Shown here piece by piece: positions 29,201 to 52,989 of a DNA stretch of 64,000 nucleotides. Source of the DNA: a phage; the sequence record PX092659.1; one strand, given 5' to 3'. A program made the translations under genes and the position numbers. A model generated the notes under the pieces. That model searched no databases and was not told the origin of the DNA. It saw only the letters and a program-made list of their open reading frames with translations. How positions within the stretch are numbered: the stretch's first letter is position 1; every line of letters starts with the position of its first letter.

Positions 29201-30158
29201 ATTTTGCAGCTCTAGCTAAGATTCTATCAATATCGCCTTGAGATAGCTTCTCGACTTCACGGAAGTAAAGTTCAAGTTCACCTAACATATCAAGATCAAC
29301 AAGATTTAACTTAGCGTCTTTAGTGACTCGATGATTAATCTTCTTATCTAATAAATCAGAGTCTTTGATAGACTTTAATTGAACAACGTCACCAGTAACT
29401 TCATAGACTACACGATCATAATCACTAGGTTCCATCTCTTCACCAGCTCCGATTGTTTTACGAATCAGTTGTGGTAAATCACCGAGTTCAATCCATTCTA
29501 CTTTTAATGTGTCGGTATCAACGATAAAACAACCATTTGTACCTTTTGTGCGTTCTCTATGGAACGATGTAGTTAATGGAGATCCTGGGTAGAGAAGTCT
29601 AGTAGATCCGATAGTCTGGCTATTAGTATAAGAATGTAAATCGCCAGCAATTACAGTATCATAACAGTTGTACTTAGTTAGATCAATTTCTGGTTTTACA
29701 TGTGGAGGGATTTCACCACGAACATGTGTGAAACATAGTTTTGATTCAGATGGTTTCCATTTGGATTTATGGATCTCATCATATGGAACAATATCAAATT
29801 CAGGGGAACGATATGGTTTGGTAATTACTTCCCACTTACCACTCGTTACTTTATTAATAACCCCCGCATAATGATATAGACATGAAATGGTTTTAGTTAA
29901 CATTTCATGATTTCCAGTAAAGATTTTGCCTGGATGGTCAAGTCTTGACATGAACTGTTCAAGCAGTTCTATTTCTTCTGACGACGGGTCGGCAACATCA
30001 AGTATATCACCACCAGCAATATGAAGATCACAGTTATGATTATGGAATATATCATTTAACCGTTCTCCTAGCATCAGGAAGCGACGCTTCTGCCATTCTT
30101 TAGGTATCTTATCTTGGCCCAACTTAATATGATGATCAGCACTAAATAGTATTTTCAC
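29181..30158 (-). CDS. sbcD: SbcD/Mre11-like nuclease (D12-like)
   Basis: 325 aa; calcineurin-like phosphoesterase motifs (FSADHHI, GDILD, GNHE); GTG start; overlaps sbcC-like start. Confidence 0.8.
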   Translation of the reverse strand: MKILFSADHHIKLGQDKIPKEWQKRRFLMLGERLNDIFHNHNCDLHIAGGDILDVADPSSEEIELLEQFMSRLDHPGKIFTGNHEMLTKTISCLYHYAGVINKVTSGKWEVITKPYRSPEFDIVPYDEIHKSKWKPSESKLCFTHVRGEIPPHVKPEIDLTKYNCYDTVIAGDLHSYTNSQTIGSTRLLYPGSPLTTSFHRERTKGTNGCFIVDTDTLKVEWIELGDLPQLIRKTIGAGEEMEPSDYDRVVYEVTGDVVQLKSIKDSDLLDKKINHRVTKDAKLNLVDLDMLGELELYFREVEKLSQGDIDRILARAAKYVKDYN

Positions 30159-30618
30159 TTAATAGACTATCATATACTGCATTTGCTACAGTCTCTGCTT
30201 CATATATGGAATCTGTGTATCCATAATGCTTACCTTTAATTTGAACAAAATATCTACCAGTTGAATGTTTTAAGAAAACACCTTTTGGTAATTCTTTATT
30301 ACTGTTTTTGTTTCTATTCAACTGATTGCGTGACTTAGAAGAGTCTAGTAAATTATCTATGGCATTATTTAATGGATTCCTATCCTTATGGTCAATTTCT
30401 TCTGGAATGTACCCATACACGTATAAGAAAGCTAGCTGATGTGCTTTGTACCTTTTACCGTCAATTCGGATTTCCAATCTGATATAGTTATCAGATACCC
30501 ATACTTCCGTCCCTGCTATGGAGCCTTTTGATACTCTTCCTCTGGAGACTTTCCATCTAAATATACCAGTTAGATGGTCATAGTCCAATAACTCTTTAAG
30601 TCTATCTTGTGTAATCAT
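30142..30618 (-). CDS. HNH homing endonuclease with AP2-like DNA-binding domain
   Basis: 158 aa; N-terminal MITQDRLKELLDY...AHQLAFLYVYGYIPEEIDHKDRNPLNN HNH core plus C-terminal AP2-like module; no SD; sits between D11-like and sbcD-like genes. Confidence 0.8.
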   Translation of the reverse strand: MITQDRLKELLDYDHLTGIFRWKVSRGRVSKGSIAGTEVWVSDNYIRLEIRIDGKRYKAHQLAFLYVYGYIPEEIDHKDRNPLNNAIDNLLDSSKSRNQLNRNKNSNKELPKGVFLKHSTGRYFVQIKGKHYGYTDSIYEAETVANAVYDSLLSENTI

Positions 30619-30620
30619 AA

Positions 30621-30648
30621 AGATATAAGAAAAGGGGCCGAAGCCCCG
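30621..30648 (-). terminator. intrinsic terminator after D11-like gene
   Basis: minus-strand GGGGC-UUCG-GCCCC hairpin followed by UUUUCUUAU. Confidence 0.7.
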
Positions 30649-30655
30649 CTATTTA

Positions 30656-31429
30656 TTAGTCGTCCAGATCGCTTGCAGCTTCTTGGTCAATACCTTTCTG
30701 GGAACCAGCATTGCTGTTACCAGATTTGGCATCATCATCTTTATTCTCACGACCTTCCATGAAGGCTTGAATTGCTTCCTTCTGCTCTTCATAGGTAGGA
30801 ACCGGATAGGTTTGTTCCAGAGAAGGAACTTTTTCGAACTTAATGATGTCACCATCTTCATCACACATAGCTTCACCGATCAGATCTACATCCGCAGCAT
30901 ATTGCTTAGATTCCGCACTGTTAGGATCTTGCAGCTTAATCTGGAACTGCATAGCAGCAATCTGCTGTACATCATACTCAGTATCGAAACCTTTACCTTT
31001 TTTCTCGATAGAAATATCAATATCAAACGGAGTTGCCAGGTTCAACTGCTTCATGATAGACTGGATGCCTTTCAGAATAGTAGCCTTGACTTCCATTACT
31101 TTCAGTTTGTTATCAGAACGGTCAATAACAAAAGCAATATAGTTTTTCTTCGGTTTCAGCGGAACACGATTACCGTCTTTATCCAGCTCTTTCTCAAAGA
31201 AGCCCATCTCATGAACCGGATCGGCTTTACCACGAACAAAGCTCTCTTTGTCACGGTTGAAACGAAGACATTCGAAAGGAGCTACGCTACCCTCTTTATT
31301 AGTCAGCCAATAGACATAACGTGGAAGAACACCAGAAACGATACGAACACGAGTGATACCGTTGTTGAACTTCAGGAATTCGATTTTATCGTTAGAACCG
31401 CCAGTAGTTTCGCCCCAAGACTTAGCCAT
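30656..31429 (-). CDS. D11-like abundant early protein, possible ssDNA-binding protein
   Basis: 257 aa, strong SD AAGAGGA, E. coli-optimal codons, acidic C-terminal tail (DQEAASDLDD) reminiscent of SSB tails; function is inference. Confidence 0.4.
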   Translation of the reverse strand: MAKSWGETTGGSNDKIEFLKFNNGITRVRIVSGVLPRYVYWLTNKEGSVAPFECLRFNRDKESFVRGKADPVHEMGFFEKELDKDGNRVPLKPKKNYIAFVIDRSDNKLKVMEVKATILKGIQSIMKQLNLATPFDIDISIEKKGKGFDTEYDVQQIAAMQFQIKLQDPNSAESKQYAADVDLIGEAMCDEDGDIIKFEKVPSLEQTYPVPTYEEQKEAIQAFMEGRENKDDDAKSGNSNAGSQKGIDQEAASDLDD

Positions 31430-31706
31430 ATTTTATTTCCTCTTTAAAGATTAATTTCGATTTGTTAATTGCGATTAGTGGGTTAGTGTCGATTACTAAA
31501 CGTGGTATCCATACTGGAACATATTGTATGTCCAAACTAGGATCGTTTGTAAACTTGTATTCGGCATAATTTCGTAGACTTAAAATTCCTAGATATTCTG
31601 CCAGTTGTCTATTAGACAATTTATTTGGATTATCAACTATTGTTGATTCATTCAAAATGAATGAGGAACCGACCAATAATTGGTGAGCATCAGGCTCCAT
31701 AAGCAT
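31422..31706 (-). CDS. hypothetical small ORF (questionable)
   Basis: 94-aa ORF downstream of tandem promoters; no SD, rare codons; may be untranslated leader of the D11-like gene. Confidence 0.25.
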   Translation of the reverse strand: MLMEPDAHQLLVGSSFILNESTIVDNPNKLSNRQLAEYLGILSLRNYAEYKFTNDPSLDIQYVPVWIPRLVIDTNPLIAINKSKLIFKEEIKYG

Positions 31707-31813
31707 TCTTTTGAATAGCTTAATAATTAAGTCGGAATTTCCTCTAGCTAGTAAGTATAGCTTTTCATAATCGAAGAATTTAATTTTTGTTTTCTCCTCG
31801 AATTTATGTATAT

Positions 31814-31843
31814 ATTATACTAGATTTCGAGAGAATTTAGCAA
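31814..31843 (-). promoter_or_regulatory. T5-type early promoter (copy 1 of tandem pair)
   Basis: minus strand TTGCTA(31843-31838)-18 bp-TATAAT(31819-31814) followed by ATAAATTCGAGGAG start region. Confidence 0.6.
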
Positions 31844-31914
31844 CTAAAATTTTTATTTTTCTGCTTCGGACTTTCTTATCAATCCGAAACTTTCTCTCTC
31901 AAATTTATGTATAT

Positions 31915-31943
31915 ATTATACATCATTTATGAGCTGTTGCCAA
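31915..31943 (-). promoter_or_regulatory. T5-type early promoter (copy 2 of tandem pair)
   Basis: minus strand TTGGCA(31943-31938)-17 bp-TATAAT(31920-31915) followed by ATAAATTTGAGAGAG; -35 lies inside 3' end of helicase gene. Confidence 0.6.
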
Positions 31944-33279
31944 ATGCAATTTTAGCTAATTGAACTGCTTTCTCCGGAGTCATAGTAATAGTTTTCCACC
32001 CGTTGTTACGATATACTGCCATACGTCCAGAAGCCTGTCTTAGTCCAGTGCCACCTTTCATAATTAGATCTACAACAATAGGGTCGAGTTTACCCTCGAC
32101 AATACGTTGAACACGGCCTGCAAGCTGTTCAATGAGAGATTCATTATTAATGAGGCTTCCCATTATTAAACAAGATAGCTCATTAAGGGAAATACCTTCA
32201 GAGAAGATACTTTGAGCTGCTGCAAGTACACAAGGGCCACCTTTTGCTATATCTTCCTGAATTTTTAACCGATCATCAAGTGGGGTTGCGCCAATAATCT
32301 CATAGGTTGTGACGCCTCGCTGAGATAGTGCTTCTAGTACTGTTTGGATTAACTCTGTTCTATCACTTACAATGAGTACTTTATGTCCCATATTCACATA
32401 TAAATGTGCTAGGTTTATAATAGTCTCTCGATATTCATGGTGATTATATACATCGTTAGCACGTAATGCCCATGGTACGTTTTGGTTCCCTGATAACTCA
32501 ACAGGTACGGAGTATCTATGGATTGTAGGTGCAACAGTATTATTAACCGGTGGGCTAAAGATCTTATATCCAAAGAAATCTTTGAACATAACTTGTAGAC
32601 CATCTTTACGTTTTAATGTTCCAGATAGCCCAATCTTATAGCGAGCACATGATATTTCTAGGAAGTTAGTGAAAGTTGTAGCCACACAATGGTGAACTTC
32701 ATCAACTATAACAGTACCGAATACTTTAGAAAGATTATTCGCATGTTTATTCACTGTTTGAATATTACTGACCACAATTGGTGGATCAATATTGTATTTT
32801 CCAGAACCTATGATACCAGGTTCAAACCCAAACCATTTACGAACTTCTGCTGCCCACATTTCACGAATGGATGTATTCGTACAGATTACCAAAGTTTTCT
32901 GGCCAAATTTATACGCAAGTGCAAGGGCTAGGATAGTTTTACCAAATCCAGGCTTACCATTAATAATACAGGTATCATCACACTCTTCATATATTGGGAG
33001 CTGGTCTTCTTCACGCAGTTTGAACTTAGGTTTTGGTATATCTACCGGAGCTAATGTGCGTTTATCTACTAATTCGTATTTTACTCCTTTAGCATCTAAT
33101 AAATCTAGACGCGTGATAGGAATCCACTTAATCTCTTTGGCAACAACACCACTATTCTTATACATAATAGGGTATTTACTAGTCATTGTCTCAATGTGAT
33201 AAGTGGTTTGCTTACTACAATAATCCCAAAGTTCATCATCGGGCTTGAAATAGGCTTTATTAGATATAACAACCTTCAT
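31927..33279 (-). CDS. SF2 DNA helicase (T5 D10-like)
   Basis: 450 aa; Walker A GKPGFGKT, DExH box VIVDEVHH, helicase C-terminal domain motifs. Confidence 0.8.
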   Translation of the reverse strand: MKVVISNKAYFKPDDELWDYCSKQTTYHIETMTSKYPIMYKNSGVVAKEIKWIPITRLDLLDAKGVKYELVDKRTLAPVDIPKPKFKLREEDQLPIYEECDDTCIINGKPGFGKTILALALAYKFGQKTLVICTNTSIREMWAAEVRKWFGFEPGIIGSGKYNIDPPIVVSNIQTVNKHANNLSKVFGTVIVDEVHHCVATTFTNFLEISCARYKIGLSGTLKRKDGLQVMFKDFFGYKIFSPPVNNTVAPTIHRYSVPVELSGNQNVPWALRANDVYNHHEYRETIINLAHLYVNMGHKVLIVSDRTELIQTVLEALSQRGVTTYEIIGATPLDDRLKIQEDIAKGGPCVLAAAQSIFSEGISLNELSCLIMGSLINNESLIEQLAGRVQRIVEGKLDPIVVDLIMKGGTGLRQASGRMAVYRNNGWKTITMTPEKAVQLAKIAFGNSS

Positions 33280-33773
33280 AATTTTATTCTAAGTCTAGGA
33301 ATTTCAGGCTCCTCTTGATGGACTTGATAAATAACAGGGCTATTATTTACCAGAATATAGCTTATATAAGCTGGAACATAGGATAATACAAATGGATATG
33401 GAACTTTAGCTACATAGCATTGGTATTTTCCGTTATAAATTCTAGCTGAATGCAAAACTTTAGAGGTGACAACATCATAGAACGTAGTTTTCTTCCAGTT
33501 AATAAGATTTCCATCAGAATCTATAAATTGGCTACGCTTTGACCCAACTAATTGAGACAACATTGATATTCTACCTCTAATAGGATAGAGCTTGTATGGT
33601 AATTCTTTCCGTTTCTCAAATAGAATAAGTCTACGTTGAGAAAAAGTGCCAGGCAACTTCCTGTTATCTAGCACATATTTATTATACCTTGTTATAATTA
33701 CGGAATAATCACCTTCTTGCTCAATTGATACAAACGCCCGTAAAGCATATACGGGCAATTTGAAATCAAGCAC
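33276..33773 (-). CDS. hypothetical protein
   Basis: 165-aa ORF uninterrupted in AT-rich sequence, GTG start overlapping DNA polymerase stop; rare AGA/AGG/ATA codons. Confidence 0.4.
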   Translation of the reverse strand: MLDFKLPVYALRAFVSIEQEGDYSVIITRYNKYVLDNRKLPGTFSQRRLILFEKRKELPYKLYPIRGRISMLSQLVGSKRSQFIDSDGNLINWKKTTFYDVVTSKVLHSARIYNGKYQCYVAKVPYPFVLSYVPAYISYILVNNSPVIYQVHQEEPEIPRLRIKL

Positions 33774-41511: not shown

Positions 41512-41654
41512 CTACAATTTTAACTAACTTTGCTCACCCTCGCCATAACTTTCTATCCCTCAACTGAATGATAATAGTATATACCTAAGCGGCGAAAATG
41601 TCAATAACCACTTTATAATTCCGATATGGTAGATGGGTAGCAAAGGGTTATGTA

Positions 41655-45467: not shown

Positions 45468-45498
45468 ATTTAAACTCCTCTCTCAAATTTATGAATCT

Positions 45499-45527
45499 AT
45501 TATACAGAAAATTTTTCCTGAAAGCAA
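45499..45527 (-). promoter_or_regulatory. strong T5 early promoter, PN25-like
   Basis: minus strand reads AAAAATTTATTTGCTTTCAGGAAAAATTTTCTGTATAATAGATTCATAAATTTGAGAGAGGAG; TTGCTT(45527-45522)-17 bp-TATAAT(45504-45499); near-identical to the T5 PN25 promoter as I recall it. Confidence 0.8.
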
Positions 45528-52932: not shown

Positions 52933-52960
52933 AACTTTCTCCTCTCAAATTTATAAATCT

Positions 52961-52989
52961 ATTATATATAAATTTTTGGCTGAAAGCAA
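52961..52989 (-). promoter_or_regulatory. T5-type early promoter
   Basis: minus strand TTGCTT(52989-52984)-17 bp-TATAAT(52966-52961) followed by ATAGATTTATAAATTTGAGAGGAG. Confidence 0.7.

Follow-up and report, generated by a model that had tools for sequence, protein, structure and literature searches.

The feature studied here is very probably the tandem sigma-70 early promoter pair P31A/P31B of phage T5, followed by a gene of 120 codons that most likely starts at an ATT codon. It lies on the minus strand of a stretch of 64,000 nucleotides (sequence record PX092659.1; referred to here as the window), which belongs to a T5-like phage (Tequintavirus) that is 99.5% identical to phage DaisyDussoix. 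The tandem promoters were already known, being annotated in the T5 reference genome; the sole new element of the analysis is the ATT start, a prediction made from the sequence. The coordinates of all features are collected in Table 1.

Table 1. Features of the P31A/P31B locus, in the order of transcription (window coordinates).
Feature	Position	Strand	Details
D10 helicase gene, 450 aa	31927..33279	-	ORF list; homologous to T5.124 D10
Promoter P31A (distal)	31889..31963	-	-35 TTGGCA 31943-31938; 17-nt spacer; -10 TATAAT 31920-31915; discriminator ATATAC
RNA hairpin, P31A leader/D10 3' region	31863..31890	-	10-bp stem (31890-31881 with 31872-31863) including two G-U pairs; 8-nt loop
Promoter P31B (proximal)	31788..31862	-	-35 TTGCTA 31843-31838; 18-nt spacer; -10 TATAAT 31819-31814; A/T-rich upstream block 31862-31844
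Putative Shine-Dalgarno sequence GAGGAG	31794..31799	-	within the P31B transcribed region; 9 nt before ATT 31784
D10-3'/T5.125 homologue, proposed 120 aa	31422..31784	-	from ATT 31784-31782
D11 gene, 257 aa, annotated single-strand DNA-binding protein	30656..31429	-	ORF list; T5.126 annotation; own Shine-Dalgarno sequence
Intrinsic terminator	30634..30647	-	terminator scan; GGGGCTTCGGCCCC followed by TTTTCTT; the corresponding site of T5 is annotated as a putative rho-independent terminator

In the T5-clade annotations examined, the small gene D10-3'/T5.125 is called as 94 codons from ATG 31706. Most probably, as judged from the sequence, it starts at ATT 31784, 78 nt further upstream; an in-frame TAA is located at 31817-31815, and the first in-frame ATG, GTG or TTG is reached only at 31706. 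The duplex of GAGGAG with the anti-Shine-Dalgarno sequence was calculated at -8.9 kcal/mol, compared with -0.9 kcal/mol before ATG 31706, -6.0 kcal/mol for D11 and -9.1 kcal/mol for the polymerase gene. The preliminary description had noted a 94-codon ORF lacking a Shine-Dalgarno sequence; this is correct for ATG 31706, which lacks one because it is most probably not the real start, but it does not apply to the gene when read from the ATT.

Alternatively, the T5-clade gene might truly be 94 codons long, the old start having been lost by an ATG-to-ATT change and the 26 upstream codons being a decaying remnant. All T5-clade annotations use ATG 31706, Met27 is present in several genera and AUU is a weak start (PMC5499595), as this reading would have it, but the 26 codons form an open, in-frame stretch in 22 of 22 T5-clade loci from IMG/VR and in essentially all of the 207 records at 95-99% identity. 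Codons 2-26 carry five synonymous variants and one non-synonymous variant within the T5 clade (P = 0.002), and the corresponding ratio for the rest of the ORF is 19:8. GAGGAG, a site of the strongest type, was found specifically in genomes with the ATT start, and no such site precedes ATG 31706; Epseptimavirus has GATGAGAGA and an ATG instead. Residues 1-30 of the 120-residue product were modelled by AlphaFold2 at a pLDDT of 95-97, as one strand and two helices. The NCBI pipeline called a copy in an E. coli assembly "partial", extending it upstream through the ATT, and ATT is present independently in a second lineage (see below). A genuine 94-residue gene is thus unlikely.

ATT is the first codon in every T5-clade genome examined; in T5 itself it lies at 75646-75648. 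It aligns with ATG starts in Epseptimavirus, Sugarlandvirus, Novosibvirus and Vibrio phages, with a GTG start in Pectobacterium phage My1 and with TTG in L052, phiR201 and L065. L064, an independent lineage with 56% protein identity, has ATT at the aligned start as well, located behind AAAGGAG. The gene family has acquired ATT on two or more occasions; other lineages have TTG or GTG, and one may have ATA. In phage TrudiGerster, a mosaic Epseptimavirus, P31B, GAGGAG and ATT are present together as a T5-type module.

AUU is a poor start codon, against which IF3 discriminates, and is used in E. coli only in infC and pcnB (PMC5499595). D10-3'/T5.125 resembles these two genes in having a conserved AUU at the start position with a ribosome-binding site before it; it differs from them in that no link between its protein and translation is known and in that AUU initiation is a prediction here. 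We infer that translation of the D10-3'/T5.125 mRNA is initiated at this AUU, and an N-terminal extension containing KFFDYEKLYLLAR... is predicted for the ATT-started form and not for the 94-residue form. The shorter call is probably a mis-annotation in the T5-clade records examined, the real product being a protein of 120 residues made from AUU behind a very strong ribosome-binding site; the recurrence of weak or non-canonical starts would suggest that selection has favoured a low or IF3-sensitive output of this protein compared with the co-transcribed D11.

The small gene encodes a genuine, conserved protein of 120 residues and is not an untranslated leader. Residues 1-120 were matched to positions 1-120 of the 120-position profile of phrog_4258, the family of the T5 D10-3'/T5.125 protein (E 1.4e-61). 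By tblastn the protein was found conserved in 907 phage records, reaching as far as Vibrio and Aeromonas phages and down to 33-50% identity, and in 905 of these at least 80% of the 120 residues were covered. The AlphaFold2 model of the whole protein has a pLDDT of 92.8. No Pfam family and no fold match in the PDB at E below 1 (best E 1.3) were obtained for the 120-residue protein, BFVD yielded uncharacterised homologues only, and the 120-residue version was not found in a collection of 15 billion proteins.

The preliminary description had instead proposed that the region may be a long regulated leader for D11; on this model some 200-300 nt after P31A would be structured and the small ORF would be translated hardly or not at all. 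Apart from the missing Shine-Dalgarno sequence at ATG 31706, this proposal could draw on the stable hairpin between the promoters and on the RNA between them, which folds better than shuffled sequences (z -4.0). It is at odds with the conservation of the ORF as a protein in the 907 records, its end-to-end match to phrog_4258, the excess of synonymous over non-synonymous changes in both of its parts (5:1 and 19:8) and the confidently predicted structure of its product. The leader from P31B would be about 23 nt long, D11 has a Shine-Dalgarno sequence of its own, Rfam gave no match, and the accessibility of the ribosome-binding site was calculated to be the same in the long and the short transcript (0.46 and 0.46). 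A long-range helix predicted to close the P31A leader in T5 is not kept in Epseptimavirus. The leader proposal was abandoned as exceedingly improbable.

The claim of two near-identical promoter cores about 100 bp apart on the minus strand was borne out. A consensus scan gave 11 of 12 matches for P31A (TTGGCA-17-TATAAT, 31943..31915) and 10 of 12 for P31B (TTGCTA-18-TATAAT, 31843..31814) when compared with the TTGACA consensus; these are the top two minus-strand matches within 30500-33500, and P31B has 12 of 12 matches to the T5-type sequence TTGCTA/TATAAT. The two cores form a direct repeat of 31 nt (31928-31898 and 31827-31797; 87% identity, 101-bp spacing), the initial 20 nt of which (GTATAATATATACATAAATT) are identical in both copies. 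This repeat spans the -10 box and continues into the transcribed region, beyond the lower ends of the cores as first described. The pattern TATAATATATACATAAATTYGAG, when searched with up to three mismatches, has four matches in the window (0.00 expected from 100 shuffles), and one of the copies other than P31A and P31B is the N25-type promoter.

Positions 31963-31788 are 100% identical to phage T5, in which the same promoter-hairpin-promoter stretch is located at the same place between D10 and T5.125/D11; the isolate differs from T5 in a few substitutions in the small ORF and in an extra HNH gene after D11, and not in the feature itself. The T5 RefSeq record NC_005859 annotates two promoters ahead of T5.125/D11 under the names "promoter P31A" (75467-75541) and "promoter P31B" (75568-75642). 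In the second T5 record, AY587007, the first core is labelled "repeat c copy 7" and the second "putative early promoter T5P38"; "repeat c copy 6" of that record is the P-N25 core. The tandem promoters as first reported are of very little import, since they are annotated in a classic model phage. A search of one library of papers yielded no paper naming P31A/P31B or T5.125 and no start-site data for the locus, and both promoters go unmentioned in Klimuk et al. 2020 (PMC7472727).

Both promoters match the T5 early promoter family (N25/K28/H207 type) in sequence. Each has a TTGCTA-like -35 box and a TATAAT -10 box, 17-18 nt apart, and 16 (P31A) or 18 (P31B) of the 22 nt preceding the -35 box are A/T, compared with 14-20 in other family members in the window. 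According to PMC7472727, all identified T5 early promoters share an ATATT-type discriminator; the discriminators of P31A and P31B, ATATA(C), come close to it, with four of five positions matching. The conserved initial transcribed sequence (C)ATAAATTTGAGAG is present as CATAAATTTGAGAGAG in P31A and as CATAAATTCGAGGAG in P31B. Judged from their sequences, both are putative sigma-70 promoters close to the consensus, and their initial transcribed sequences are of the N25 type. Among strong E. coli promoters, this family is the best studied.

P-N25 itself, of which an N25-type copy lies at 45482-45504 in the window, shares the -10 box and the initial transcribed sequence ATAAATTTGAGAGAG with the two promoters, and its A/T-rich discriminator is similar to theirs; it differs in being a single promoter and in having AGATTC where P31A and P31B share ATATAC. 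A second annotated tandem pair of T5 early promoters, P-K28b/P-K28a, reportedly described by Gentz and Bujard in 1985, has copies at 41576 and 41483 in the window. Like P31A/P31B, its promoters are on the same strand, 93 bp apart and upstream of a replication gene (ligB); unlike them, they have less similar cores, no conserved hairpin between them and no overlap of the distal promoter with a stop codon. Tandem sigma-70 promoters are also known from highly expressed bacterial operons, for example rrn P1/P2 of E. coli, in which two promoters about 100 bp apart serve a single transcription unit with a product required in large quantity; their sequences are unrelated to those of P31A/P31B.

The final codons and the TAA stop codon of D10 (31929-31927) lie within P31A, and its -35 box TTGGCA is made by codons for ..F-G-N... 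It is conceivable, if rather improbable, that only P31B works and that P31A is an inert duplicate core ("repeat c") that happens to fall on the helicase stop codon. Such a reading would account for the AY587007 label, which names a repeat and not a promoter, for a -35 box constrained by helicase codons and for phage My1, which manages with one promoter; however, that promoter sits at the P31A position. Moreover, P31A scores better than P31B on the generic consensus and has the optimal 17-nt spacer. At least seven diverged lineages, whose intervening sequences are unalignable, have a distal promoter on the stop codon of the helicase gene. In T5, Epseptimavirus, Sugarlandvirus, Novosibvirus, L047, L052 and L064 a proximal promoter follows 92-101 bp downstream, so that the two-promoter layout recurs in at least six T5-like lineages besides T5; Sugarlandvirus has three promoters at the locus. 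In phages beppo and TrudiRoth, in which a homing endonuclease gene has replaced the 3' end of the helicase gene, the former 27-nt helicase tail with the P31A -35 box has been kept as non-coding DNA before an intact P31A. In phiR201, L065 and Klebsiella phage Spivey (Sugarlandvirus) the start codon follows directly on the proximal -10 box, so these phages would need the upstream promoter for a translatable mRNA. Both the 92-101 bp spacing, conserved across genera, and the survival of P31A where a homing endonuclease gene has moved in show that the distal promoter is under selection.

Two other explanations of the layout were rejected. That the promoters are leftovers of a gene once inserted between them was not borne out by beppo and TrudiRoth, whose endonuclease gene is upstream of P31A; and a conserved mini-ORF between the promoters was discarded, as its frame and length vary by eye among T5, Spivey, Novosibvirus, L047 and L052. 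In Vibrio Thalassavirus and in L045 a gene is located between the two promoters; an origin by insertion is possible for the family and unneeded for T5.

The inverted repeat reported between the promoters was found as TTCGGA-N12-TCCGAA at 31888-31865 (0.03 matches expected by chance; unique in the window), and it extends to the 10-bp RNA stem of Table 1. The hairpin has a calculated energy of -14 kcal/mol (z -5.9), and 0 of 200 shuffled sequences fold as well. It corresponds to +19..+46 of the P31A transcript. Its arms are both kept in Spivey, with a 3-nt loop. Among relatives, three variants are wobble-compatible and three disruptive; the alignment contains no double compensatory substitutions. 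Rfam gave no family match for the hairpin, a permissive threshold returning only a chance hit to SprD (18.9 bits; gathering score 100).

A role in stopping transcription was considered, in which P31A and the hairpin would yield a short non-coding RNA or an attenuator that terminates or pauses the majority of transcripts from P31A, as well as read-through from the helicase gene, ahead of P31B. The stability of the hairpin, its conserved position in the transcript and the arms kept in Sugarlandvirus despite the 9-nt loop difference would suit this reading, and the variation in arm spacing makes an RNA element more plausible than a protein operator. However, the stem is followed on its 3' side by A-rich AGAAAAAUAAAAAUUUU instead of a U tract, so that the hairpin is not an intrinsic terminator; it was not reported by the terminator scan, and neither T5 record has a terminator annotated there. 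The hairpin is also absent from other genera with tandem promoters and from the P-K28 pair, and neither an Rfam family nor compensatory covariation was found. An attenuator or non-coding RNA is therefore very improbable, and the hairpin may act on RNA stability or processing rather than on termination.

Two structural candidates were set aside. A protein operator was rejected, the half-site spacing of 12 nt in T5 and 3 nt in Spivey being incompatible with a fixed dimer site. The long-range helix, in which the initial sequence of P31A (UUUGAGAGA) pairs with the spacer of P31B (UCUCUCGAA), was treated as chance, as it is predicted in T5 and absent from the Epseptimavirus fold.

The transcription starts were placed by analogy with N25, in which TATAATAGATTCAT represents -12..+2 (PMC7472727). 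The predicted starts are the A at 31908 for P31A and the A at 31807 for P31B, corresponding to 75522 and 75623 of NC_005859, and both promoters are expected to fire in vivo at these positions. P31A and P31B would be internal promoters of the replication-gene cluster, through which transcription from the polymerase and helicase genes would run on. They would add transcripts for two genes only, D10-3'/T5.125 and D11, the stop codon of the former overlapping the start of the latter by 8 nt; D11 is the last gene of the unit, which would end at the terminator at 30647-30634. P31A would give a leader of 124 nt with the stable hairpin; P31B, 101 bp downstream, would give the short leader, its N25-like initial sequence carrying GAGGAG. 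The arrangement presumably serves to provide extra dosage of mRNA for the D11 unit, and the 92-101 bp spacing may leave room for a polymerase on each promoter at the same time. Promoter-dependent masking of the ribosome-binding site was rejected, the unpaired probability being equal in both T5 transcripts (see above) and no consistent trend being seen in four other lineages.

If the ATT start is real, D10-3'/T5.125 would join infC and pcnB in the very small set of genes that are expressed in E. coli from an AUU start. Since ATT is not considered as a start by gene finders, the call of this conserved replication-cluster protein is probably truncated in over 200 genomes of the T5 clade. The locus would provide a natural case for the study of AUU initiation in phage infection, for which close relatives with ATG at the same codon are ready controls.

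Region 31300-32100 matched 442 phage records by megablast, the best being Escherichia phage DaisyDussoix (99.5 %); the top matches were all Tequintavirus or Epseptimavirus. From the DNA polymerase to D12, the gene block is that of the T5 early replication cluster. Alignment of 31400-32000 with the T5 record NC_005859 gave 100 % identity from the end of the D10 helicase gene to well beyond the second promoter. Past the D11 terminator and running into the start of D12 is an HNH-type homing endonuclease ORF (158 aa; 30142-30618, minus strand) that lacks a Shine-Dalgarno sequence (duplex +2.2 kcal/mol); it is not at the corresponding site in T5, DaisyDussoix or Lindwurm.

Promoters and genes of the D10-D11 region (window positions unless indicated otherwise)
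Feature	Position	Strand	Basis
P31A core, TTGGCA-17-TATAAT	31943..31915	minus	consensus scan, 11/12
P31B core, TTGCTA-18-TATAAT	31843..31814	minus	consensus scan, 10/12
Promoter P31A	31963-31889 (NC_005859 75467-75541)	minus	RefSeq feature upstream of T5.125 and D11
Promoter P31B	31862-31788 (NC_005859 75568-75642)	minus	RefSeq feature upstream of T5.125 and D11
P-K28b / P-K28a	41576 / 41483 (last base of each -10 box)	minus	promoter scan
DNA polymerase	36333-33766	minus	ORF list
165-aa ORF	between DNA polymerase and D10	minus	ORF list
D10 helicase	33279-31927	minus	ORF list
Small ORF	between D10 and D11	minus	ORF list
D11	31429-30656	minus	ORF list
HNH gene, then D12	after D11	minus	ORF list

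The preliminary description had placed two near-identical promoter cores ahead of a 94-aa ORF, and they are present at the positions it gave: the site, between D10 and the small gene (D10-3′/T5.125), is the annotated P31A (distal) and P31B (proximal) pair of T5. The shared core is a 31-nt direct repeat (87 % identity, 101-bp spacing) that starts one base ahead of the -10 box and extends ∼20 nt into the transcribed region. It is not due to chance, as seen from the scan scores and from the pattern TATAATATATACATAAATTYGAG, which with up to three mismatches had four matches in the window (0.00 expected). The independent T5 record AY587007 has "repeat c copy 7" at the first core, "putative early promoter T5P38" at the second and, at the site of promoter P-N25 of NC_005859, "repeat c copy 6"; the near-identical cores are therefore members of the T5 early promoters, a recognised dispersed family. 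About a dozen members were found by scanning the window, with the same -10 box, an A/T-rich discriminator and the initial sequence (C)ATAAATT(T)GAGAG. Two more copies of the core lie at 45482-45504 and 52944-52966 (minus strand), the first identical to the P-N25 core (TATAATAGATTCATAAATTTGAG). Since positions -12 to +2 of N25 are known (TATAATAGATTCAT; Klimuk et al. 2020, PMC7472727), transcription starts could be predicted by homology at 31908 (P31A) and 31807 (P31B); a literature search found no report of start-site mapping for either promoter. T5 early promoters have an ATATT-type discriminator in common (PMC7472727), whereas that of P31A and P31B is ATATA. The tandem pair is thus confirmed as the P31A/P31B early promoters of T5, and by this identity is ordinary and already known.

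The promoter layout was compared in 49 IMG/VR loci encoding the small protein and in annotated GenBank records. A distal promoter on the helicase stop codon and a proximal one directly ahead of the small gene recurred, with -10 to -10 spacings of 101 bp in T5 and Epseptimavirus, 95 in Novosibvirus, and 100, 98 and 96 in loci L047, L052 and L064; Sugarlandvirus has three promoters (92 and 100 bp apart). Most of these genera cannot be aligned with one another over the inter-promoter DNA. Pectobacterium phage My1 has a single promoter, the one on the helicase stop, and Vibrio Thalassavirus phages and L045 carry an additional gene between the two. In phages beppo (L010 760-1293) and TrudiRoth (L011 973-1503) a homing endonuclease gene has displaced the helicase 3′ end and supplies a new helicase C-terminus; the former 27-nt helicase tail (aaaattgcatttggcaactgctcataa), with the P31A -35 box, persists as non-coding DNA before an intact P31A, which argues that the promoter rather than the C-terminal peptide has been retained. 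The beppo endonuclease is split into two separate ORFs. The distal -35 hexamer (TTGGCA or TTGCTA) is made by the helicase C-terminal F-(G/A)-(N/K) codons (31943-31930 in the window), and the same overlap was seen at the homologous sites of L006 (Klebsiella phage Spivey), L007, L008, L009 and L052; this motif is kept across subfamilies while the remaining C-terminus diverges, so the site is dual-coded. A second annotated tandem pair of T5, P-K28b/P-K28a, lies before ligB with a 93-bp spacing; pairing early promoters in tandem at ∼100 bp is thus an established feature of T5. Such an arrangement would raise transcription of the D10-3′/D11 unit over upstream read-through, and ∼100 bp may be close to the minimum distance that lets two polymerases occupy both promoters.

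The inverted repeat described between the promoters is present and not fortuitous: it is unique in the window, and the folded RNA has a stem of 10 bp and a loop of 8 nt (-14 kcal/mol, z -5.9). Its position is 37 nt past the D10 stop, corresponding to +19 to +46 in the predicted transcript from P31A. The hairpin is conserved in Tequintavirus and Epseptimavirus, and was found neither in the other genera examined nor between the P-K28 pair. Spivey has identical arms (CTTCGGA/TCCGAAG) and a loop 9 nt shorter, which is more in keeping with an RNA stem than with a protein site of fixed spacing. Three variants among relatives leave the bases paired, as a wobble or more stably than before (A-U to G-U, U-A to U-G, U-G to C-G), and three singleton changes each disrupt a pair; no double compensatory changes were seen among the relatives, so covariation support is absent. 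An attenuator was rejected: the stem has no 3′ U tract, is unlisted by the terminator scan and carries no terminator annotation in NC_005859 or AY587007. We regard the hairpin as a real, lineage-restricted RNA stem-loop with a putative role only; it may influence how the helicase 3′ end or the P31A 5′ leader is processed, or how stable it is.

The 94-aa ORF called from ATG 31706 had been considered doubtful for want of a Shine-Dalgarno sequence. This reading fails. A tblastn search with the 94 residues matched 906 phage records (Klebsiella 68 %, Proteus 53 %, Vibrio 49-54 %, Aeromonas phages 33 %); annotations of these relatives give the gene a length of 117-120 aa. The start of Epseptimavirus S124 (ATG AAA TTC TTT GAT TAC) pairs codon for codon with ATT AAA TTC TTC GAT TAT at 31784 in the window. 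The 26-codon extension, once translated, is conserved over six genera (D5, L12, G15 and L19 invariant), and the 120-aa reconstruction covers positions 1-120 of the 120-position profile phrog_4258 (E 1.4e-61). As a query it was covered to at least 80 % in 905 of 907 records, 207 of the 907 being 95-99 % identical; a 94-aa match would give only 78 %. An AlphaFold2 model (18 homologues) had a mean pLDDT of 92.8 and a pTM of 0.87; residues 1-30 form a strand and two helices at pLDDT 95-97 and are therefore part of the fold. The model (31784-31425) had no significant PDB match (best E 1.3), and in BFVD it matched T5-like homologues that are all uncharacterised; the fold of this conserved protein of the replication cluster may be one not yet described.

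ATT is fixed at the aligned start position, being present in 22 of 22 T5-clade IMG/VR loci, both T5 records (NC_005859 75646-75648, equivalent to window 31784-31782, minus strand), DaisyDussoix, Lindwurm and the window; the corresponding codon is ATG, GTG or TTG in other lineages. GAGGAG, 9 nt upstream, gives an anti-Shine-Dalgarno duplex of -8.9 kcal/mol, matching the polymerase gene, and ATG 31706 only -0.9; GAGGAG occurs only with ATT, Epseptimavirus having GATGAGAGA with ATG. Polymorphisms within the T5 clade at codons 2-26 were five synonymous to one non-synonymous (P = 0.002 against 21 % synonymous expected for random changes), similar to codons 27-120 (19:8), a pattern indicating that the extension is under selection. 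Locus L064, from a separate lineage (Logan SRR23015428; 56 % identical protein, gene-called at 94 aa), has ATT at the aligned start (1123-1125) behind AAAGGAG, and its N-terminal extension is in frame and intact. Escherichia phage TrudiGerster (classified Epseptimavirus; L005 905-1040) combines the whole T5-type P31B/GAGGAG/ATT module with an Epseptimavirus-like rest of the gene, which suggests that the module moves by recombination. AUU starts in E. coli are limited to infC and pcnB, and are repressed by IF3 (PMC5499595). Initiation of the T5-clade gene at AUU 31784 is, on this evidence, quite likely. Elsewhere in the family, L058 (IMG/VR 3300028829, ∼895-903) has ATA as aligned first codon behind GAGGGG, which may be another non-canonical start. 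Yersinia phage phiR201 (L063 ∼690-700; small gene unannotated) and L065 (∼100-110) have a TTG start immediately after the proximal -10 box; in these and in Spivey (ATG, L006 1055-1070) the distance is 1-4 nt, GGTG directly precedes the -10 box, and the proximal-promoter transcript would be leaderless or miss the start codon.

The suggestion of a long regulated leader for the D11-like protein was rejected. A start at ATT 31784 leaves a P31B leader of ∼23 nt, in which the conserved initial sequence of the transcript would itself be the ribosome-binding site; an Rfam search returned nothing meaningful, and predicted accessibility of this site was equal for P31A and P31B transcripts. The inter-promoter RNA folded better than shuffles in five of seven cases from several genera (z -3.3 to -5.3), with structures that differ from genus to genus, and a T5-specific long-range helix was not retained in the closest relatives.

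T5.125/D10-3′ is probably annotated 26 codons short in every T5-clade record examined. The T5-clade members listed for the protein cluster are all 94 aa or shorter (one of 77 aa), the exact T5 120-aa protein is absent from a collection of 15 billion proteins, and the NCBI pipeline produced one "partial" call that reads through the ATT. The one new element at this locus is the probable AUU start, with T5.125 systematically truncated across public annotations, a modest and testable annotation correction.
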